DNA of 64,000 nucleotides from a virus. The translations under genes were made by a program, and so were the position numbers. Below the pieces are notes generated by a model that saw only the letters and a list, made by a program, of their open reading frames with translations, ran no database searches and was not told the DNA's origin. The first letter of the stretch is position 1, and each line of letters begins with the position of its first letter. The stretch is from IMG/VR virus record IMGVR_UViG_3300037311_000293; one strand, 5' to 3'. Positions 9,632 through 53,909 of the stretch are shown piece after piece.

Positions 9632-10189
9632 TCACACCCGAGTTTTCAGGGTGTTGGCTACGCTGAGTCGAGGATTGATCACGTGACGACTTGCTGCCGG
9701 TCCCGGAGGCTTCAGGAAGTTCTGAGACGCCATGCCGCGGAACTTCCCCACACTCTGTGCCGCAGATCGAACCTGGCCCGGCCCCGGTAGGGCATAGGCG
9801 AGCTTGGAGAAGAGCTCGGCAAGCGCGCTCTCCTTCTCGCGCTGGTAGGTATCGAACACGTTCTTCTGCGTGCCGGGTTGCTCGACCTGATCTCCGAAGG
9901 CCTTCTTGAAGTCCTTGAGGATCCTGCGTCTCCGAAGAAAGGAAGCCACGCCCGCTTTCTTGTCTCGCTCACGCTTCTCCTTGAGCTTCTCGGGATGATC
10001 CCGGAAGTATTGCATGTCCCCGCTTGCCTTCTTGGACAGCAGAGTGGGCTTGCCTTTCTCCGCAGGCGCGCGTTCGGGCAGTCGAGCGAAGTCGGTCTTC
10101 TTCGCCCACTCCTTGGCCTTGGTCTTCGAGATGCCCGGGATGTGACCGCCGAAGGCCGCGCGCTGCTGGCGTTTGGATTCGAAGGGCAT
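9632..10189 (-). CDS. Basic hypothetical protein, possibly virion internal
   Basis: 185 aa Lys/Arg-rich, starting MPFESKRQQR, with several KxA motifs. Confidence 0.7.
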   Translation of the reverse strand: MPFESKRQQRAAFGGHIPGISKTKAKEWAKKTDFARLPERAPAEKGKPTLLSKKASGDMQYFRDHPEKLKEKRERDKKAGVASFLRRRRILKDFKKAFGDQVEQPGTQKNVFDTYQREKESALAELFSKLAYALPGPGQVRSAAQSVGKFRGMASQNFLKPPGPAASRHVINPRLSVANTLKTRV

Positions 10190-21016: not shown

Positions 21017-21340
21017 ATGCCCGACCAACCCATCAAGAAGCCCATCCTGATTCCTCGACTCGGAAACCTTCAAGCCGTCATCGAGCAACGCGGTACAGGC
21101 GTCTCTGCGCGGCCCGTCGCGCGCTTCGCCAAGCTCGTACCTCCGAACGCCGAATCCGACGCCCATCAGGTCTACGAGCTCGAGGAAGTCGCGCTGTTGA
21201 AAGAGCTGTGCGAGCGGATCCTCAGCGACGCGTACCGGATGCAGACGCTCGTGGTGCCGGATGCTTCGATCGAGGTACCCGACCCCCACACTGCAATCGA
21301 CAGATCAGCCAAAACCAAGCCGCGCAAGAGCAAAAAATGA
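21017..21340 (+). CDS. Hypothetical protein
   Basis: 107 aa, SD GAAGGA, coupled to the kinase gene. Confidence 0.65.
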   Translation: MPDQPIKKPILIPRLGNLQAVIEQRGTGVSARPVARFAKLVPPNAESDAHQVYELEEVALLKELCERILSDAYRMQTLVVPDASIEVPDPHTAIDRSAKTKPRKSKK

Positions 21341-21981
21341 TCATCGTACTGGGTGGAGTTCGAGGCTCCGGCAAAGACACCGTAGGTGCTCTGCTGGTCA
21401 ACTACTACGGGTTCAAGAAGGAGGCATTCGCGAATCCTCTGAAGGAGATGGTACGTCACGCCTTTCCGGCGTTCACCGACGAAGATCTCTACGGTCCCAG
21501 CAAGAACCGCGAGAACAGATACAAGCAGTATCCCTTCAGCGGGATCTGCGTGGCTTGTGGCTCTACGTGTAAGGACTACCTCGATCACTGGAAGTGCATG
21601 AGCTGTGGGGCGTCGTATCCTGATCACGTCAACCCGCGCATCGCCCTACAGACACTGGGTACCGAGTGGGGCCGGCGACTCACCCCAGATGTCTGGGTCA
21701 ACGCTGCGTTCCACCGCATCGCGCAGGACCCCGGATCCAACTACGTCATCACGGATTGCCGATTCCACAACGAGGTTGCCGTGTCGCACGATCACGATGC
21801 CTTCGTGGTCAAGCTGACCCGAGGACTCAAGAGCTCGAGCGACACGCATCCATCAGAAGCTGAGTTCGGCACGATTCCCGAGCACCTGTTCGACTACGTT
21901 CTCGACAACGCCGAGCTCGACCTCGCTGCGCTGCCGGATGCTGTCGAGCACATGATGCACGCAGCAAAGTGCTCGGTATAA
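21337..21981 (+). CDS. Deoxynucleoside monophosphate kinase with zinc-ribbon insert
   Basis: P-loop GGVRGSGKDT, FANPLKEM, R..LQTLGTEWGR and VITDCRFHNE motifs. Confidence 0.9.
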   Translation: MIIVLGGVRGSGKDTVGALLVNYYGFKKEAFANPLKEMVRHAFPAFTDEDLYGPSKNRENRYKQYPFSGICVACGSTCKDYLDHWKCMSCGASYPDHVNPRIALQTLGTEWGRRLTPDVWVNAAFHRIAQDPGSNYVITDCRFHNEVAVSHDHDAFVVKLTRGLKSSSDTHPSEAEFGTIPEHLFDYVLDNAELDLAALPDAVEHMMHAAKCSV

Positions 21982-28747: not shown

Positions 28748-28875
28748 CAGAACACCGCAGGCCTATCGCGCTCACGGCGCTTGGTCTTCACGACGTCACA
28801 GACGAAGAAGGGTACCCACAGCGGCGCAGTCACCGCTGCGCCGAACCAATGCCAGAACCAGATCGGTAGTTTCAT
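28747..28875 (-). CDS. Small membrane peptide (42 aa)
   Basis: MKLPIWFWHWFGAAVTAPLWVPFFV..., overlapping both neighbours. Confidence 0.5.
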   Translation of the reverse strand: MKLPIWFWHWFGAAVTAPLWVPFFVCDVVKTKRRERDRPAVF

Positions 28876-30539
28876 CGCGTCCTCACCGTTCCGTAGAGCA
28901 AGTGAACCGTGGCGTCGAGTAGGTCGTCACCGCTGTCCCAGACGCGCTCGAGCGTCAGCCAGAACGGCGCGTTCGCCGTCAGACCGGTGAGGTCGAAGGC
29001 CTGCTCGAACACCGCATTGGCGGCGACGAAGTTCACCGTTGCTTCCACCGAACCCGGGGGCTCGGCGTACGGCGAAGCAGTACCGCTGCCGTAGCGGAGC
29101 CGGAAGCGCGCGGTCTTGGTCGGGCTCGAGTTCGCGTCTGCGACGAAGTAGAGACGCACGACGGGATCAGAGACCTGGGTGTAACTGGCCCATTGCGGCC
29201 GGATGAAGCGGCCACCGGCACTGACGACGGCGTTGCGGAGGTATCCGATCAGACCGCCGTTGGCGTTGACGTCGCCGAAGCGCATCGTCATGTCGACTGC
29301 TGCGGCGCTGCCGAAGAGCCCGTAATAGATGCCTGTGGTGCGAAGCCCGATGCCGCTTCCCCAGACGGCCTCGACGGCGTTGGCGTTGTCGTCGGCGCCT
29401 GCGGCTTCGATCCAACCTGGTGCAAGGACATCGCCAAACGGCTGGACATCCACGGTACCGTCGAGACGCACCGCGCTGAGCTCACCGTCGGCGTAGGCCA
29501 TGCGAACGCCGGCGTACGGGAACATGAGTCCGAGGGAGTAGCGGCCATCGAGTTGGATTCCGTCTCCTGGGCTTCCTCCGGTGATGGGGGTGTTGTCGTC
29601 GCGGATCACCATGTAGGCGTGCATCTGAGACGCCGCGGAGCCCAGCACAAGAGTCTGATCCCAGTACGACGGCAGCGCGTTGGTCGTCGCCATGCGAAGG
29701 ACCCCGCCTTCGACAAGCTGGAAGTCTCCGGGAACACCGGAGCCCCCATGAGTGAAGCCCTGAGCTCCAGGCAGCGACCCCTTTCGGGCGTCGTACTCCA
29801 GGACACCGAGGCAGCGATCGAAGGGCACCGAGAGCCGTGACCCGCTTGCGGGCTGTCCAGCGGGGTTCGACGCCGCACCACCAAACAGCCAGGAGCGCGG
29901 TGCTCCGTTCAAGTCGGCATCCGACGGCATCAACATCATGGGCTCAGCCTCCAGGTAGATCGTTACGAGGGCAGTGGTATGACCGCTACAGCGATCGACG
30001 AGATACACGGTGTAGTCCCCGGAGACCGCCACCTCGGGGAGCTCGGCGCACAGTAGCGTATCCGCCAGCGAAGCTCCCGGAGGCGGTGTATCGATGACGA
30101 TCGGCGGATACGGCGCAACTACGGCCGCAGGAACTCCAGAAGCCAACGAGAGCTCCGCAGAGAACGTATCGGCGCCGACGAACTCGAGGGCGTAACACGT
30201 GGCCGGGCGTTGAACATCCGCGGCTACGACGCAGAGCAACCCGTTCGTGACGTAGCTACCGATGGCTGTGATCCCGCCAAGGCGCTTCGAGCTACGAAGA
30301 CGCCCGCAACTCTCACACAGCGTTTCGAGCGCCGCCGCCCGATAGGTGGCTTCGAAGAGCCCCCACGAACCCGCAGGACCAGTACCGAAGTACGTACCAA
30401 ACGGCGTGGAGCCAAGACCACCGCCACCGCTCGTACTGAGCAGCATCCAGCGCTCGACGGTTTGTGTCGTTGACACCCTGCGATCGCGGAAGCGTGTATA
30501 TCCGCAGGTGCACTTCCGGTTTCGGTACTGGGCGGTCAC
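28872..30539 (-). CDS. Putative virion structural protein; possible internal start at 29939
   Basis: 555 aa; N-terminal Cys motifs and a beta-rich C-terminal part. Confidence 0.65.
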   Translation of the reverse strand: MTAQYRNRKCTCGYTRFRDRRVSTTQTVERWMLLSTSGGGGLGSTPFGTYFGTGPAGSWGLFEATYRAAALETLCESCGRLRSSKRLGGITAIGSYVTNGLLCVVAADVQRPATCYALEFVGADTFSAELSLASGVPAAVVAPYPPIVIDTPPPGASLADTLLCAELPEVAVSGDYTVYLVDRCSGHTTALVTIYLEAEPMMLMPSDADLNGAPRSWLFGGAASNPAGQPASGSRLSVPFDRCLGVLEYDARKGSLPGAQGFTHGGSGVPGDFQLVEGGVLRMATTNALPSYWDQTLVLGSAASQMHAYMVIRDDNTPITGGSPGDGIQLDGRYSLGLMFPYAGVRMAYADGELSAVRLDGTVDVQPFGDVLAPGWIEAAGADDNANAVEAVWGSGIGLRTTGIYYGLFGSAAAVDMTMRFGDVNANGGLIGYLRNAVVSAGGRFIRPQWASYTQVSDPVVRLYFVADANSSPTKTARFRLRYGSGTASPYAEPPGSVEATVNFVAANAVFEQAFDLTGLTANAPFWLTLERVWDSGDDLLDATVHLLYGTVRTR

Positions 30540-30570: not shown

Positions 30571-30972
30571 TCAGCCTGCGGCGCGGATCAGATTGATGAG
30601 ACCGATGATGAGGCTCGACAGCGCTGTGACGATCGCGACGACGATGGGTGCCGTGGCCTTCCACTTCTCGACTGCGATCTTCTTCTCTTCCACAGCGATC
30701 TTCTTGTCGTCCTTCTTGGTCTCGATGACTTCTTCGACTTGCTTCTCGAAGCGGCCGGTCTGGTCGGCTTGGCGCTCCTTGACATTGTTCAGTCGTTCCT
30801 CAAGACGTGCGAAGTCGGTCTGGAGAGCCGTGACCTTCTCGTTCATCTTCTCCATGGCGTCGCCGAACTTGGCCTGCTGCGTAGCCCGCTCCTCGAGCAT
30901 CACACGCATGGCGGCAAAGCCGCGGGCAACGGCGACCTTCAGATCATCCATGGACTCTCGGTCTTCACTCAC
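30571..30972 (-). CDS. Coiled-coil protein with C-terminal TM helix (holin-like)
   Basis: 133 aa ending KWKATAPIVVAIVTALSSLIIGLINLIRAAG. Confidence 0.55.
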   Translation of the reverse strand: MSEDRESMDDLKVAVARGFAAMRVMLEERATQQAKFGDAMEKMNEKVTALQTDFARLEERLNNVKERQADQTGRFEKQVEEVIETKKDDKKIAVEEKKIAVEKWKATAPIVVAIVTALSSLIIGLINLIRAAG

Positions 30973-31754
30973 GGCTCTCCTCCAAGGCTCTGGAGTACTT
31001 CGAGGAGCTCCTGCTCCGGATCAGTGGGTCTCGGTGCCTCTTCACTGGCCGCCCGGATGGCTTCGAGGGCGCGATCAGAGATCTTGACGGTACGACGCGT
31101 ATGGACGTTCTTGTCCATCCGAAGAAGAGTACGTAGGTCTTGGATTGCGGTGTAGAAGTCGTTGTTCGACAAGATGTGTTCGATGTCGTCCGCGATGGCG
31201 GGGTAGTTCTTCTGGATGTACAGACGGATCTGCGTGACCGTCTCGTCGATCTTGTTGACGTGCTCCGAGGCCATCCCGCTGATCGATGGCGGTGGCGTAG
31301 AGCCTGGCTTGCTGTCCAGTGTGAGCGTCTCGAGGCTCTTCGCCATCAGCGCCTTTGACGTCGCCGAGCGTCGCGCCCGCTCCAAGGCGTAGAGGATCTC
31401 GCGTTCGAGCTCATCAGACGTCAGCTCAGACCGCTTCACGATGAAGTTGTCAGCACCGGCCTCCATGGAGCGCGTCGCAACGTTCAGGTCTTCCTGACCG
31501 CTGAGAACGATGATCGGTGTATTCGGCGCCTCTCGACGGACAGCGATCACGGTATCGATGCCATGACTATCCGGAAGAGACAGGTCGAGGAAGATGAGGT
31601 CGACCCTCCTGTTCTTCAGGATCATGAGCGCGGTACTCAGCCACTCGGCATGCTCGACGGCGCAGCGAACGCGGGACGCAGATGCCAGACGCCTCATGAC
31701 GAGCTTGGCATCTGACGGATTGTCTTCGACGAGCAGGATGTGTACGGGGATCAT
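30969..31754 (-). CDS. Response regulator (REC + unknown helical C-terminal domain)
   Basis: ILLVEDN, IFLDLSLPD (phospho-Asp), IIVLSG and FIVK motifs; ATGA-coupled start. Confidence 0.9.
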   Translation of the reverse strand: MIPVHILLVEDNPSDAKLVMRRLASASRVRCAVEHAEWLSTALMILKNRRVDLIFLDLSLPDSHGIDTVIAVRREAPNTPIIVLSGQEDLNVATRSMEAGADNFIVKRSELTSDELEREILYALERARRSATSKALMAKSLETLTLDSKPGSTPPPSISGMASEHVNKIDETVTQIRLYIQKNYPAIADDIEHILSNNDFYTAIQDLRTLLRMDKNVHTRRTVKISDRALEAIRAASEEAPRPTDPEQELLEVLQSLGGEP

Positions 31755-32185
31755 ACGCGCCTCGGTAACCTGCACTGCACGAACCAGAAGTCCTCGAGGG
31801 AACGGACGAAACTATCGAGTGCTTCGGGGCTTCCTGGCTTCACGGCATACGCATTTGCGCCTAAAGCGTAGCACCGCTCGATGTCAGCCGGCGCGTCGGA
31901 GCCCGTCAGTACGATGACGGGCACGTCCTTGAGCCCAGGATCTGTCTTGACGGACTCGAGCACATCGTACCCCGAAACCTTCGGGAGATTGAGATCAAGA
32001 AGTACGACGCTTGGGCGCGGGACGGTCGCGTAGGGAACCGCCTGCCGCAAGAAGAGCAGTGCTTCCAAGCCGTCGGATACTGTGTGAATCCGATGCGGCA
32101 TTCTCATGCGTGCCAGCACCCGGTGCATCGCTCGGACGTCCGGTAGATGGTCTTCGACGAGAAGTATCTGCGGTCTGTTCGGCAT
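31751..32185 (-). CDS. Single-domain response regulator, Rcp1-like
   Basis: ILLVEDH, VLLDLNLPKVSG, VIVLTGS, GANAYAVKP and FW tail. Confidence 0.92.
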   Translation of the reverse strand: MPNRPQILLVEDHLPDVRAMHRVLARMRMPHRIHTVSDGLEALLFLRQAVPYATVPRPSVVLLDLNLPKVSGYDVLESVKTDPGLKDVPVIVLTGSDAPADIERCYALGANAYAVKPGSPEALDSFVRSLEDFWFVQCRLPRRV

Positions 32186-33254
32186 GACGTCGTGCCACCA
32201 CGAAGCGGACTGTAGCACCACCCCCAGGTGTGGACTCAATCCAAATCCGACCACGATGAATCTGAATGATCTTGTTGCAGATAGCGAGGCCGATACCAGT
32301 CCCGGGCTTCGAAGTGTCGAGCCGCTTGAAGACACCGAAGACCTGTTGGGTATAGACGGGGTCGATACCGATGCCGTGATCGACGACGGAGAACAACCAG
32401 CCCTCTTCTGTCTCTTCCCCGGTGAGGTGAACTACGGGAGCCACTCCGGGACGGGCGAACTTCACGGCGTTCGACAACAGATTGCTAAGGAGCAACCGCA
32501 TCAAGCTCTCATCGGCCCATGTGATGGGCAACGGGTCCCTAGTGATCTTTGCTCCGGTCTCGCGTACACGAAACTCGTTGTCCAGCACGGCGTTATCGGC
32601 GGTGGTATTCATGTCCACCCACTTCATGTCGACAGCACGCCCGACGCGACTGAGCTTCAGCAAATCACTGACGAGCTCACGACCACGCGCGGCGGCGTCA
32701 ACGATGTAGCCGAGCTGCTCAAGGCCTTCCGGAGGCAAGAGGTTACCGAAGTCTTCCTTGATGAAGGCGGCCCAGTTGGCGATGGTACGAAGAGGCTCCT
32801 GGAGATCATGTGACGCGGCGTATGCCAACGTCTCTGCCTCTTCCTTGGCACGCTTGTAATCATCGGCGGTGTGGGTGAGATCGATGACGTACTTTCCGAT
32901 CTGGTTTTCGATGACCTTCTCGCTCGTGATGTCCTTGGCGCAGCAGTGGATGCTTCCGTCGGCATCTACATCAGGATGACATCGCCAACGCATCCAGACG
33001 ATCTTACCTGCCTTGGTGATGAAGCGGTTCTCGAAGACACCGGTACAGGAGGCACTGGCACAGGCGTCGAAAGACGCCACTACCTCATCCCGATCTGCCA
33101 TGTGCGACAGCTCAACAAGATCCCTAGAAGCCAACTCGCCCCTGGTGTAGCCGAGAAGATCACAGAATGCGTCGTTGGCTTCGACCACGACCCCTCGACG
33201 CAAAACACACATCGCATCGAAGGCGGCCTCGAAGAAACGCTTGTAGTACGGCAT
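31995..33254 (-). CDS. Cytoplasmic PAS-domain sensor histidine kinase (Cph1/BphP-type kinase core)
   Basis: PAS/PAC; H-box ASHDLQEPLR; N-box NLLSNAVKF; G1 DHGIGI; F-box VFGVF; G2 GTGIGLAIC. Confidence 0.93.
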   Translation of the reverse strand: MPYYKRFFEAAFDAMCVLRRGVVVEANDAFCDLLGYTRGELASRDLVELSHMADRDEVVASFDACASASCTGVFENRFITKAGKIVWMRWRCHPDVDADGSIHCCAKDITSEKVIENQIGKYVIDLTHTADDYKRAKEEAETLAYAASHDLQEPLRTIANWAAFIKEDFGNLLPPEGLEQLGYIVDAAARGRELVSDLLKLSRVGRAVDMKWVDMNTTADNAVLDNEFRVRETGAKITRDPLPITWADESLMRLLLSNLLSNAVKFARPGVAPVVHLTGEETEEGWLFSVVDHGIGIDPVYTQQVFGVFKRLDTSKPGTGIGLAICNKIIQIHRGRIWIESTPGGGATVRFVVARRHAEQTADTSRRRPSTGRPSDAPGAGTHENAASDSHSIRRLGSTALLAAGGSLRDRPAPKRRTS

Positions 33255-33258
33255 GTGA

Positions 33259-34509
33259 TCACAAGTACGTTGGGAAGTCCATATTCCAGAGATCCCAGAC
33301 CTCTGTCCGGAGTGTCGCGTTGTGGGCAACGGGATACAGCGCCAGCCTTGAGATCGACGCATCTGCGAAGCTACTGAGCGACGTGAGGGCCGCCAACATC
33401 GCACTGCCGCCGACAGCCCGTGGGGTGTATGCCTGATCACTACCGATCTGGGTGCGTCCACGGAAGAGCCGACAGAGGTTGGCGCTCCCGTCGAGTACCC
33501 ACGTCAGTACCTGAGCATCAGCGAGCGACGCCCCAAACGTTCGCCAAGCCCCATCGAAAAGTGAAACATTGTCACCCTCCGCGATCGAGCTCAGCATGAA
33601 CCGCAGAGGCCCGGTCTCGACGTCGAGGATACAGGCATCACCTGTACCAGCGTTGTCGTAAAGGGCCACGTAGAGCGTCCAGTTCGTAGAGGCATTGACG
33701 AGCCCGGAGATCGCCATGCGCTGTTCGCTTGAAGCGAGGAAGTCAACCGTAGGGTACCCGTCGATGCCGCCGACAGCTAAGTAGAGTGGCTTGTTGAACG
33801 CTGCGGACTCTTCGGCATCAGTTCCTGCGGTTCCCTGGTCTTCCCAGATCTCCACATAGTCCAGATTCTCCACGGGATCACCAGGAGCCTCAAGGACTCC
33901 AATCGCAGCGTCAAATAGGATCAATGGGTCACCGAGGACATCATCCGAGGTCACTGCGATTCCGTTCGTCACGACCTCAGTAGCGCTGACAGCTTGCCCG
34001 AATGTGACACCACGAATCGCGCATGTGATCGTCGTTCCGGCGTCGGCGATCTGTGCCTGGTATGCCTGGTTCGTGGCACCTGCGATGTCGACACCATTTC
34101 TGCGCCACTGGTACCTGTACTCCTCGATCGGCAACTCTTGGCCCGCGCTATTGGTCGCCAGTACCCAGCCACCTTCGGCTGCGGTGAACGTGGTCCCGAC
34201 AACTGCGGGTTCGGCGTCACCCACAATGGAAGGCTCAATGATCCCGGGTGTTGGTGCTCCAGGTAGTTCGGTAGCAAACGTACCGGCGACACGAGAAGCC
34301 AGCGCCAACGCATCTGATCGACGGACAACTTGGACATCACCAAGAAGAGTAGCTGCACCCGAAATGGGATCCGGCAACGCCGGCATGCTTACGCGCGTAG
34401 AATCCGGATCATCCGTGACCCAGACAACGTAGCCGTAATCGACCGGGAACGGCGCATCTCCAATGAGCGTGGAGTACGAGATGTAGAGCTGTCGGTTGAG
34501 TACCGGCAT
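33259..34509 (-). CDS. Virion adhesin/fibre with Ig-like and lectin-like domains
   Basis: YRYQWRRNGVDIAGAT Ig-like segment; WEDQ...GIDGYPTVDF domain. Confidence 0.65.
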   Translation of the reverse strand: MPVLNRQLYISYSTLIGDAPFPVDYGYVVWVTDDPDSTRVSMPALPDPISGAATLLGDVQVVRRSDALALASRVAGTFATELPGAPTPGIIEPSIVGDAEPAVVGTTFTAAEGGWVLATNSAGQELPIEEYRYQWRRNGVDIAGATNQAYQAQIADAGTTITCAIRGVTFGQAVSATEVVTNGIAVTSDDVLGDPLILFDAAIGVLEAPGDPVENLDYVEIWEDQGTAGTDAEESAAFNKPLYLAVGGIDGYPTVDFLASSEQRMAISGLVNASTNWTLYVALYDNAGTGDACILDVETGPLRFMLSSIAEGDNVSLFDGAWRTFGASLADAQVLTWVLDGSANLCRLFRGRTQIGSDQAYTPRAVGGSAMLAALTSLSSFADASISRLALYPVAHNATLRTEVWDLWNMDFPTYL

Positions 34510-34510
34510 C

Positions 34511-35704
34511 TCAGATCACCGAGTAGTTGGAGGTGTCGACACCGAACGTGCCGGGACCGTCGTACTGCGCTCCTGTGGGATCAGCACCGTTTGTCGTGAC
34601 CCATACATGCCAGCCGCCGGCGACGGTATCCCAAACACGGTTGCGCGTCTCTGAGCTCGGGGCTGGTGGTCCGTTGTCGGGAAGCGCGAGCTCGACACGG
34701 GCTTCTGCGACAGGCTCATCTGCAATGGGCCATCCACCTGTCCATGCAACAGGCCATCCTGCGGTGCCGTAGAACGCGTGGGCTCCGTAGTCCGTACCGG
34801 TGCCCGTAGTGACACCGTGGGGCCACGGAAAGAAGTAGTTGCCCCACCGGATGAAGCTACGTCCTTCGGTGGCGTTGTTGATTGTGTCGTTCGCCGCAGG
34901 CGTAGCCGTCGGGAAATAGGCGAAGGAGGTGCCAAGGCCTTTTCGGATTTCACGACCGCCAGTGTTCTCGCCGATGAACGCGGGCTGGATGTCGTACTGC
35001 CCGGAATACGGATTGGTCTGCACGCCCGTTGTGTACGGCGCGCCGTTTGTGATCTGAAACGCAATGGCTTCGATCTGTCCCGAAAGACCCAGCAGACCCG
35101 ATGCCGAGCTGGTCGCACGAAGGCAAATCCAAGGCTCGTAGTCCACGTTCCCGTTGTCGCCGTTTGCGACTGTACTCAGCGCAAACAGCCCTACTGCTGT
35201 CTGAACAGTGGTTCCGGCGATCAACTGGATGACGAAGTAGAACTCATAGACATCGCCGGTCTGGCCGCGCCCGACTTGAGCAGCGGCGACGTGGTACTCG
35301 TAGGATGCGAAGCTCGAAGGGATGAATGCCGTGTCATACGCACCCGACGTACCTACAAGCTGCACGCGCGTCAGAGATCCAGTAGGCGCTGTGGTGGCCG
35401 TTCCTCCTGAGAAGATGTCGCCGTACTGACCGAGATACCAACGCCACGACCGATTGGTCGTACCGCGCTGCATCGTGAAGTCACGGTTACCTGCGGGATC
35501 GCGCCAATGCTCCCAGGAGTCAGCGTTGCTCCATCGCGTAGCGTCGTTGCGTGTGGACGCCGACGTCGAAGACCCGTTGCTGGACCGGACAATCACCCAT
35601 CCCGCGGCCGCAAGACGATCACCGAACGCGATGATCGGGGCGATCTCCGAAGCCAGGGCCTCGTTGACGTCAAACCGCCAGTTGTCTGAGAGATGTAGCG
35701 TCAT
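34511..35704 (-). CDS. Putative virion structural protein
   Basis: 397 aa, paralogue of 35704-36624. Confidence 0.65.
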   Translation of the reverse strand: MTLHLSDNWRFDVNEALASEIAPIIAFGDRLAAAGWVIVRSSNGSSTSASTRNDATRWSNADSWEHWRDPAGNRDFTMQRGTTNRSWRWYLGQYGDIFSGGTATTAPTGSLTRVQLVGTSGAYDTAFIPSSFASYEYHVAAAQVGRGQTGDVYEFYFVIQLIAGTTVQTAVGLFALSTVANGDNGNVDYEPWICLRATSSASGLLGLSGQIEAIAFQITNGAPYTTGVQTNPYSGQYDIQPAFIGENTGGREIRKGLGTSFAYFPTATPAANDTINNATEGRSFIRWGNYFFPWPHGVTTGTGTDYGAHAFYGTAGWPVAWTGGWPIADEPVAEARVELALPDNGPPAPSSETRNRVWDTVAGGWHVWVTTNGADPTGAQYDGPGTFGVDTSNYSVI

Positions 35705-36624
35705 CAGAACCCGAAGCTCACGTTATGGGGCCACGGAATCGTCCAGACTCCAAGGTTGAGGCGACACTCCCCCCCGGTCATCGGAGACAGCACCGCGAGG
35801 TTCCCTCGGATCGCGGAGTCTCCGGTTACGTTGTCAAAGATGCCCTTGCGCTGCTCACGCCCGCCAGTCGTTTCGCCAACGAACAGCGGAGGCAGGTCAT
35901 CGAACAGCGTCAGGGGGTTCCGGCCGGTCCAGGTGCTGGGCTCAGAAGCCTGTAGTGTGGTCGTCTGTAGTTCCCCGGAGAGCCCAGCCTTGTACCAGCC
36001 ACGAAGGCCGCTCAGGGAGTTCTGCGACGATGCTGAAGCCCAGGGCTCGTTGTCGGGGTCGCCGACAACACCGTCTGCGGTGCTGGTGAGCGAATCCACG
36101 AACATGAAACCTTGCGGAGCTGAAGCTGAGTTCGTGGGTTGGATCAGAATCCAGAACGGATAGACATCACCGCTGACACCGCTGGCAACACCTGCGGCGC
36201 CGAAGTGGAACCTGAAGTTCGAGATCGTGGAGGTACCGAAGAAGTTGGACGCCGCCGCGCCTCCAGTACCGACAAGCTGTATGCGGCCCGCAGAGCTCGG
36301 AAGCACGGTGGCGCTGCCACCGGTCATCGGCTCTCCGGCCTTGCCCTGGTAGAACAACAAGTTCTGGGCCGACGACGGTCGCTGGAACGCGATGTCGCGA
36401 CCGGATGCGCCACCGGGATCACGGAGATGGACCCATGCGTTGCTGTTGTTCCACTGCGAAGCCGTGGGCACCACCGATGCCGTCACCGCGCTGCCATCGC
36501 TCGACTGTACCGCGGTCCATCCGGCGGCAAGGAAGACGTTGACCCAGGCGGCGTAGGCGTCGCCATGTGTGGCGTAGCCTTCGTTGACGTTGTAGTGCCA
36601 GTTGTTCGAAATGTGGATCGTCAC
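35704..36624 (-). CDS. Putative virion structural protein
   Basis: 306 aa; MTIHISNNW and GETTGGREQRKG match the neighbour. Confidence 0.65.
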   Translation of the reverse strand: MTIHISNNWHYNVNEGYATHGDAYAAWVNVFLAAGWTAVQSSDGSAVTASVVPTASQWNNSNAWVHLRDPGGASGRDIAFQRPSSAQNLLFYQGKAGEPMTGGSATVLPSSAGRIQLVGTGGAAASNFFGTSTISNFRFHFGAAGVASGVSGDVYPFWILIQPTNSASAPQGFMFVDSLTSTADGVVGDPDNEPWASASSQNSLSGLRGWYKAGLSGELQTTTLQASEPSTWTGRNPLTLFDDLPPLFVGETTGGREQRKGIFDNVTGDSAIRGNLAVLSPMTGGECRLNLGVWTIPWPHNVSFGF

Positions 36625-53584: not shown

Positions 53585-53835
53585 GCCTCAATGTCAGCGA
53601 TCGTCACGCGGACGCTGCTCGGGTCGTGTAACGAGCGGATGACATCGACTCTGTTGATGACAAAGCCGTACTCCCTGAGACGGTCGCTCTCGCGTTCGAA
53701 TGCGTAGCGCATCTTGGTCAGTACTCCCGGCGAGGCTGGCAAGCCCAAGTATTGCTCTGCGATCTTTACATACCTTTCTCTTACGTGGCCTTCGATCAGT
53801 GAATACACGAACTCGTAGATGATGGTCTTGAGCAT
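53581..53835 (-). CDS. Hypothetical protein whose ATG overlaps the tRNA CCA
   Basis: 84 aa from MLKTIIYEF. Confidence 0.55.
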   Translation of the reverse strand: MLKTIIYEFVYSLIEGHVRERYVKIAEQYLGLPASPGVLTKMRYAFERESDRLREYGFVINRVDVIRSLHDPSSVRVTIADIEA

Positions 53836-53909
53836 GGTAGGACCAGTCGGGATCGAACCGACGACAGCCGCCTTGTAAGGGCGGTGCTCTACCGCTGAGC
53901 TATGGTCCC
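53835..53909 (-). tRNA. trnV: tRNA-Val(UAC) with encoded CCA
   Basis: GGGACCATAGCTCAGCGGTAGAGCA-CCGCC-CTTACAA-GGCGG-CTGTCGTCGGTTCGATCCCGACTGGTCCTACCA forms a cloverleaf. Confidence 0.95.

Follow-up and report, generated by a model that had tools for sequence, protein, structure and literature searches.

The stretch of DNA analyzed here, called the window, comprises the 64,000 nucleotides that form the end of IMG/VR virus record IMGVR_UViG_3300037311_000293, the genome of an uncultured phage, of 177,453 bp and with a CheckV completeness of 100%. On its minus strand, between positions 30571 and 33254, lie four consecutive genes. In the direction of reading these encode a histidine kinase (HK), two response regulators with receiver (REC) domains (RR1 and RR2) and a small protein with a transmembrane (TM) anchor. 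Together they constitute a new phage two-component system, specific to large phages, which has a new output domain and a membrane partner and which is related to a fused form described below. Bacteria rely chiefly on two-component systems as sensory devices, and the genes for such systems, when found in phages, are usually dismissed as stray host genes. In the present case the whole 177-kb genome contains one kinase and exactly two receivers. A first-pass annotation of the window had proposed that they are a complete set owned by the phage, and the intact domains, the synteny and the purifying selection documented in the following paragraphs bear this out.

HK (31995-33254, minus strand) is a protein of 419 aa with a PAS-HisKA-HATPase architecture. 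Pfam places a PAS domain at residues 4-110 (nt 32925-33245; PAS_3, 1e-13, with matches also to PAS and PAS_9), a HisKA domain (1.2e-6) that contains the phospho-accepting His149 (codon 32808-32810), and a HATPase_c domain at residues 248-353 (nt 32196-32513; 7.9e-24). The protein ends in a tail of 63 residues that is rich in Arg, Gly, Ser and Pro (residues 357-419, nt 31998-32186). When 25 HK homologues with 38-87% identity were aligned, H149, within the sequence SHDLQEPLR, was invariant, as were N258/N262, D292/G294/G296, F306/F309 and G318/G320/G322. The description of a PAS kinase with intact H, N, G1, F and G2 boxes, given in the first-pass annotation, is thus confirmed by both Pfam and the alignment. 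Judged by its domains and residues, HK belongs to the two-component histidine kinases of class I (HisKA). Bacteriophytochrome kinases are among the solved structures that match the kinase core best. Pfam detects no GAF or PHY domain, and a single PAS domain lies N-terminal to HisKA. The 24 closest kinase homologues are encoded on contigs as long as 186 kb from Logan, JGI or NCBI. Among GTDB species genomes (one genome per species), the best matches reach only 29-44% identity in their best segment, and they come from a wide range of phyla. In a quick FastTree of kinase cores, 18 of 23 module kinases form one cluster apart from the bulk of the bacterial sequences. This cluster includes two sequences from bacterial metagenome-assembled genomes and leaves out three long-branched lineages of the module; a tree of this kind is no proof of a single origin of the module kinases.

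RR1 (31751-32185, minus strand) is a single-domain receiver of 144 aa of the Rcp1/RcpA type. Its Pfam match is to Response_reg (5.9e-18), with no output domain, and the acidic pocket (E11/D12), the phospho-acceptor (D64), T94, K116 and W134 of the C-terminal FW are invariant in nine sequences. Residues 6-141 align end to end with residues 4-139 of RcpA (1k68) with an E value of 1e-31, and Rcp1 aligns as well. Bacterial homologues of RR1 are 44-50% identical to it, a level as high as that between phage copies. The kinase and RR1 may be compared with Cph1-Rcp1, the type to which the first-pass annotation had assigned them, and with bacteriophytochrome kinases with RcpA-type receivers (1k68, 1i3c, 6xvu, 8avv). 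The assignment holds for the SHDLQEPLR H-box and the HisKA/HATPase core, for the match of RR1 to RcpA including the FW ending, and for the position of the receiver gene directly after the kinase gene. It does not extend to the photosensory module, since the phage kinase has one PAS domain and no GAF/PHY. Two further proteins, a second receiver whose output domain is novel and a partner anchored in the membrane, also distinguish the phage-encoded set.

RR2 (30969-31754, minus strand) is a protein of 261 aa that joins a receiver to a helical C-terminal domain. Pfam recognizes the receiver only (Response_reg, 1e-20), and E10/D11, D57 and K107 are invariant in 38 sequences. The claim that a single-domain REC protein is accompanied by a second one, with acidic pocket, phospho-Asp and Lys intact, is therefore upheld by the alignments of both receivers. 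The receiver of RR2 resembles those of PleD, NtrX and DgcR-type regulators, which signal by way of an extended alpha-5 helix. An AlphaFold model of RR2 with a pLDDT of 82.5 shows the receiver followed by such a helix at residues 113-145, and then by helices at residues 158-183, 185-197 and 200-210, which have pLDDT values of 80-90; the C-terminal part is less confident, and the C-terminal domain modeled alone reached a poor pLDDT of 58.

This C-terminal domain (residues ~131-261, nt 30972-31364, minus strand; ~140 aa) is acidic and helical and belongs to no recognized family. A Pfam search at an E value of 10 returned nothing meaningful, with neither an ANTAR nor a helix-turn-helix (HTH) match, and the ESM Atlas offered no usable look-alike. 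A search of 1.84 billion representative proteins with the profile of the domain found 60. Nearly all of these are 245-300 aa long and carry the domain at about residues 115-260, which is the architecture of RR2. There were no matches in 401 sampled genomes of Actinomycetota, and in 401 sampled Cyanobacteriota there was a single weak one inside an ORF of 1834 aa, which is probably spurious. A metagenome scan with the RR2 homologue P0136 recovered unrelated receivers only. From these sequence comparisons, the domain appears to be a rare output domain that is confined to the module.

The last of the four genes (30571-30972, minus strand) encodes a protein of 133 aa with a predicted coiled coil and, at residues ~108-130 (nt 30583-30651, minus strand), a hydropathic C-terminal anchor. 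On its N-terminal side the anchor is flanked by a Lys-rich juxtamembrane segment, and only 3-5 residues come after the anchor. The placement of the Lys-rich segment predicts that the coiled coil is cytoplasmic, tethered by its C-terminal anchor. Copies of the TM protein have low identity to one another and share an RGxSA sequence near the N terminus, a DxTGK in the middle and a W before the TM helix. A word search found only two close homologues, and in the closest relative the TM protein is 63% identical, compared with 87% for HK and 90% for RR2. The gene follows RR2 directly, with overlapping start and stop codons, in every copy of the module. It is therefore a constant fourth member, and not the appendage for which it had been taken. 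The gene had been called holin-like in the first-pass annotation, but neither Pfam nor PHROG yields a holin, XhlA or DUF2951 match for the protein, and a search of the whole genome for PF10779 and PF11166 at a threshold as loose as an E value of 10 found none. A look-alike in the Atlas pointed to DUF2951, and this is a lead by feature score only (0.92). The genes around the TM gene have no Pfam matches.

The four genes are closely packed. The stop codon of a fiber-like gene (33259-33261) is separated by a gap of 4 nt from the ATG of HK at 33254, an ATGA at 31751-31754 provides both the stop of RR1 and the start of RR2, and a GTGA at 30969-30972 does the same for RR2 and the TM gene. These junctions had all been correctly reported. 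The further statement that all of the genes are coupled by stop/start overlaps is accurate for RR1/RR2 and for RR2/TM. At the junction of HK and RR1 the arrangement is different and had been overlooked: the HK frame has no stop at the start of RR1 and continues for 63 codons into that gene, ending at 31995. The result is an out-of-frame overlap of 191 nt (31995-32185, minus strand), in which RR1 is read in the +1 frame relative to HK.

This overlap is not peculiar to the window. All 25 HK homologues end in such a tail, which is 63-102 residues long and has a high content of G, R, S, A and P. Since the homologues come from different data sets, loss of the HK stop codon by a sequencing error is ruled out. 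More distant copies of the module, in contigs that we designate L136, L003 and L004, have ordinary HK/RR1 overlaps of 4 nt instead. A programmed frameshift, which would yield an HK-REC fusion, was also considered and set aside as unlikely: RR1 is read in the +1 frame, and the stretch just upstream of the RR1 start differs in length and sequence among the HK homologues, which leaves no slip site conserved. A fusion at a point further inside RR1 would lack the first half of the receiver.

The tail contains a conserved motif, A-L-L-A-x-G-G-x-L-R-D-R-P. The overlap was simulated by synonymous randomization of RR1 with its protein sequence fixed. The tail frame remained open for 63 codons in 33% of the trials, with a median open length of 37 codons, and the identity over the whole tail was about as expected (0.35 observed and 0.37 simulated). 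The 13-residue motif ALLAAGGSLRDRP behaved differently. On average 9.8 of its 13 positions matched in 24 homologues, compared with the 5.0 expected from the simulation, and the probability of at least 10 matches to ALLAAGGSLRDRP was 0.004 per simulated trial. This is a hint that the stretch encoding the motif may be under a second constraint, on the peptide or on the RNA. The hint is unproven, because the simulation assumes saturation and uses the RR1 of the window alone. The HK/RR1 overlap is a possible natural example of a long gene overlap that is under selection.

The relatives of the module in IMG/VR were identified by profile-based scans, with subsequent analysis of ORFs and HMMs; scans of IMG/VR for patterns of single proteins and a megablast against INPHARED gave no match. 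The gene order HK-RR1-RR2-TM recurs in nine other IMG/VR contigs. Three of these, L002 (168,874 bp), L136 (195,355 bp) and L137 (195,774 bp), come from three further samples and are syntenic with the window on either side of the module. The order in common is a 415-aa gene, variable fiber-like genes, HK, RR1, RR2, TM, a 555-aa gene, small genes and an 1182-aa gene. In L137 the neighbor upstream is a 768-aa tail-fiber protein (PHROG, 8e-26). Because both flanks are reproduced in these three contigs, there is no chimeric join at the borders of the cassette. The first-pass annotation had recommended just such a comparison with related large phages, and had named a dN/dS near 1, together with absence from relatives, as the marks of passenger host DNA. 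In addition to the nine contigs with the module, we obtained Nei-Gojobori dN/dS values between L136 and L137 of 0.115 for HK, 0.113 for RR1, 0.086 for RR2 and 0.143 for TM. The corresponding values between L003 and L004 are 0.32, 0.21, 0.42 and 0.37. These values indicate that the genes are not decaying passengers.

The surroundings of the module are less uniform. Downstream of it in L022 come a tail-fiber PHROG (4e-62) and a gene for a virion protein; in L141 a Nudix gene lies upstream, and L003 and L004 have almost no neighbors in common with the window. It follows that the constant unit consists of the four genes and not of a link to tail fibers. The first-pass annotation had described the operon as wired into the tail-fiber module. 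This is apt for the relatives in which it occupies the same place beside fiber-like genes, and it fails for L141 and for Microcoleus phage My-WqHQDG, where the neighbors are replication genes. The input region of the kinase also varies, ahead of constant RR1, RR2 and TM genes. There is one PAS domain in the window family and in L022, an additional N-terminal region of ~250 aa together with PAS in L002, L136 and L137, a TM segment with PAS in L138, and almost nothing in L003, L004 and L141. In L138/L144, where the kinase starts with a TM segment, an extra hydrophobic ORF of 97 aa (9661-9954) is present between RR1 and RR2.

The set in My-WqHQDG (OR578706.1, 88856-91946; L162) is a reduced version of the module. 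Its genes, arranged as in the window and with overlapping ends, encode a kinase, a receiver resembling Rcp1, another receiver and a coiled-coil TM protein. The second receiver, of 171 aa, lacks the C-terminal domain of RR2, TM segments and a longer input region set the kinase apart, and the neighboring genes encode a primase and a helicase. The genes of this module are annotated as hypothetical, apart from one "response regulator receiver domain protein", and the preprint that describes the phage does not discuss them. IMG/VR contigs L017 and L018 have a kinase of the clade described for the My-WqHQDG entry, followed by two receivers. In four other contigs of 219-548 kb (L006, L007, L013 and L016) a kinase is located 2-4 kb from a pair of short receivers, one of the RR2 type and one of the RR1 type, on opposite strands.

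A sister family was found in huge-phage and large viral contigs of 113-452 kb (L011, L012, L019, L023, L024/L033, L028, L030 and L032). Here the order is a protein of 293-350 aa, a kinase and an Rcp1-type receiver. The first protein consists of an RR2-type receiver (hhalign probability 99.8%, 33% identity), a helical stalk and a C-terminal TM anchor. This fused REC-stalk-TM cassette and the module of the window have in common the RR2-type receiver, the type of kinase, the Rcp1-type receiver, a C-terminal anchor and an output that is not DNA-binding. They differ in that the fused form is a single polypeptide encoded upstream of the kinase, whereas in the window there are two genes downstream of RR1, and in that RR2 of the window has its own domain of ~140 aa, which has no detectable similarity to the stalk. 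By its architecture, the module of the window looks like a split form of the fused receiver.

A second instructive comparison is with Detocs, which is composed of a kinase (DtcA), a stand-alone receiver (DtcB) and a receiver-effector (DtcC), and in which a minority of the effectors are transmembrane (bioRxiv 10.1101/2023.01.24.525353). Mutation of the DtcB aspartate causes toxicity, and DtcB has been proposed to be a phosphate buffer (bioRxiv 10.1101/2023.01.24.525353). HK, RR1 and RR2 follow the same logic and the same order, with an output that does not bind DNA. The phage module differs from Detocs in having no recognizable PNP or nuclease effector, in having an output that is split between RR2 and a separate TM protein, and in being located in a phage structural block and not in a bacterial defense island.

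Based on these data, we favor with moderate confidence the reading that the four genes form a functional signaling module, owned by the phage and inherited vertically, which has its output at the membrane through RR2 and the TM protein. In the mechanism that we propose, the soluble kinase would read a cytoplasmic cue with its single PAS domain and autophosphorylate on His149, and the phosphate would be passed to the two receivers encoded directly downstream. By analogy with DtcB, RR1 would most likely serve as a phosphate buffer or sink that sets a threshold. RR2 would be the output arm, in which phosphorylation of D57 would act by way of the alpha-5 helix and the novel C-terminal domain upon the coiled-coil protein, which would be translated together with RR2 and held by its tail anchor on the inner side of the cytoplasmic membrane. 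If RR2 acts on a tethered protein, the output is predicted to be a membrane event and not transcription. In the clade of the window the switch probably operates late, a timing suggested by the embedding of the genes in, and their coupling to, the tail/fiber block and by the minus strand from 28.0 to 38.5 kb, where no terminator-like site is predicted. Candidates for the event that is controlled are the timing of lysis, the exclusion of superinfecting phages and the control of a host membrane function. The link of the TM protein, or of the module, to lysis timing is a guess, because six Pfam families of endolysins (Amidase_2, Phage_lysozyme, SLT, GH25, M23 and M15_4) had no match across the 177-kb genome; endolysins of other families are possible. 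As a whole, then, we infer the routes of phosphotransfer, the buffering by RR1, the contact between RR2 and the TM protein, the timing and the controlled event from the architecture of the module and its relatives.

Several observations weigh against a membrane output of this kind. The C-terminal domain of RR2 has no detectable homology to the stalk of the sister family, and the match of the TM-region profile to the fused family is weak, with a probability of 10.6%. The comparison of split and fused forms is therefore an architectural argument only. An acidic helical domain without a structural match could have a binding partner different from the TM protein. The rapid divergence of the TM protein (63% identity, compared with 87-90% for its neighbors in the closest relative) would also fit a role at an interface with the host that has nothing to do with RR2. 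In My-WqHQDG the module is placed among replication genes, so that a late timing is clade-specific at best. Finally, both the phosphorelay and the contact between RR2 and the TM protein are predictions made from sequence.

The resemblance to Detocs suggests a different purpose for the same proteins. The kinase might sense a competing phage or mobile element, with RR1 buffering leaky signaling and phosphorylated RR2 triggering the TM protein to depolarize or kill the cell or to block the entry of DNA, so that the module would be a conflict system for phage exclusion and not a clock for lysis. The correspondence with DtcA-DtcB-DtcC in gene logic and order, the existence of transmembrane Detocs effectors and the fast evolution of the TM protein are compatible with this idea, and a variable kinase input combined with a constant RR1/RR2/TM output is a pattern typical of conflict systems. 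We think it unlikely nonetheless. No PADLOC defense-system model matches HK (the presence of Detocs models in the release was not confirmed), and the receivers match the candidate families PDC-M60B/C weakly. No toxic enzymatic effector is recognizable, the module is found inside the structural block of apparently virulent large phages and not in a defense island, and its position has been stable over long divergence, unlike that of typical mobile defense cargo.

The output of RR2 might alternatively be exerted on nucleic acid, with RR2 serving as an ANTAR-like antiterminator or other transcription factor for late genes and the TM protein being an unrelated neighbor. The top Foldseek match of the RR2 model is in fact the ANTAR regulator EutV (6wsh, E value 2.6e-9 over 217 columns), and in both proteins a receiver is joined by a long helix to a helical bundle. 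However, the rmsd of this superposition is 14.7 A and the match is driven by the receiver. VIA-align likewise covered only residues 1-153, and with the full RR2 model the fold searches by both programs matched the receiver part only. The lack of a Pfam ANTAR or HTH match at the permissive threshold and the acidity of the domain also speak against binding to nucleic acid. Moreover, in every copy the TM gene overlaps RR2 by start and stop, and the receiver of the sister family forms one protein with a membrane anchor. For these reasons a regulator of transcription seems to us quite improbable.

We would give similarly little credence to the proposal that the module is directed at the signaling of the host, with HK phosphorylating host regulators or the receivers draining phosphate from host kinases of the Cph1 type. 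Cross-recognition is conceivable, since the HK core and RR1 are close to widespread bacterial pairs of the Cph1/Rcp1 type. Yet the complete cognate set has been kept together and is co-evolving under purifying selection, and a self-contained pathway is therefore favored. The remaining explanation, that the cassette is a chimera of the assembly or a non-functional piece of host DNA captured recently, could appeal to the GC3 of the HK gene (0.63, somewhat below that of most neighbors), and it is effectively refuted by the uniform overall composition of the window, the recurrence of both borders in three independent assemblies, dN/dS values of about 0.1, the lack of a close bacterial donor among GTDB species genomes and the presence of 25-38 homologues on large contigs.

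The output at the membrane through RR2 and the TM protein, which we prefer to these alternatives, can be carried a step further. A self-contained phage phospho-switch, made up of a kinase, a buffering receiver and an output receiver whose domain is specific to viruses, may gate a coiled-coil membrane device according to the state of the infected cell, and so set the time of lysis or shut out competitors, while in the subfamily of the window the tail of HK (LLAxGGxLRDRP) may be a functional peptide and the overlap of the kinase and its substrate a case of selected dual coding. We regard this extended version as possible but rather doubtful. What makes the module of general interest is that a complete two-component set, always with its membrane partner, has been kept for a long time under strong purifying selection in several lineages of large phages, with the implication that these viruses may decide for themselves, in response to a signal, on an event at the host membrane. 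The four defined proteins are a small set with which this idea can be tested, and the split form seen here connects with the fused receivers that huge phages tether to the membrane, and with the logic of Detocs in bacterial defense. Searches of the open-access literature returned no account of a phage module of this kind. A preprint of 2026 on the phages of ammonia oxidizers says no more than that proteins of two-component systems are well represented among the genomes it covers.

The genes adjoining the module had been described as virion genes. This is plausible, and it is weakly shown, because the matches of one flanking gene are weak and the other has no family. The 416-aa gene upstream (33259-34509, minus strand) includes an Ig-like segment and may be fiber-like or virion-associated; it has weak PHROG matches, from 4e-7 to 2e-3, to virion structural, Hoc-like and tail proteins, and no Pfam match. 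The 555-aa gene downstream (28872-30539, minus strand) encodes an N-terminal Cys-rich, zinc-ribbon-like segment (C-x-C ... C-x-x-C) and has no Pfam, PHROG or PADLOC match. It was recovered by tblastn after the module in L002, L136 and L137, with 36-37% identity over its full length. Farther upstream, two tandem paralogous genes of 397 aa and 306 aa (34511-36624, minus strand), with similar N-termini of the form MT(L/I)H(L/I)S(D/N)NW, are situated between the conserved 415-aa gene and the 416-aa gene. The gene content of this interval differs among L002, L136 and L137, as expected of a receptor-binding hot spot.

Elsewhere in the window, a deoxynucleotide monophosphate kinase gene (21208-21981, plus strand; Pfam DNMK, 1e-13) is carried on the opposite strand within a minus-strand block and is kept in L002, L136 and L137. 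The only tRNA in the record is Val-TAC (window 53835-53909). The 177-kb record as a whole contains minor tail and tail-fiber PHROGs, a weak match to a major head protein and a 684-aa protein common to many phages. Outside the window, a single ORF of 2077 aa (G000:C1:45527-51760) has several matches to RNA polymerase beta-subunit PHROGs and looks like a fused gene for a polymerase of the multisubunit type, as in some large phages.

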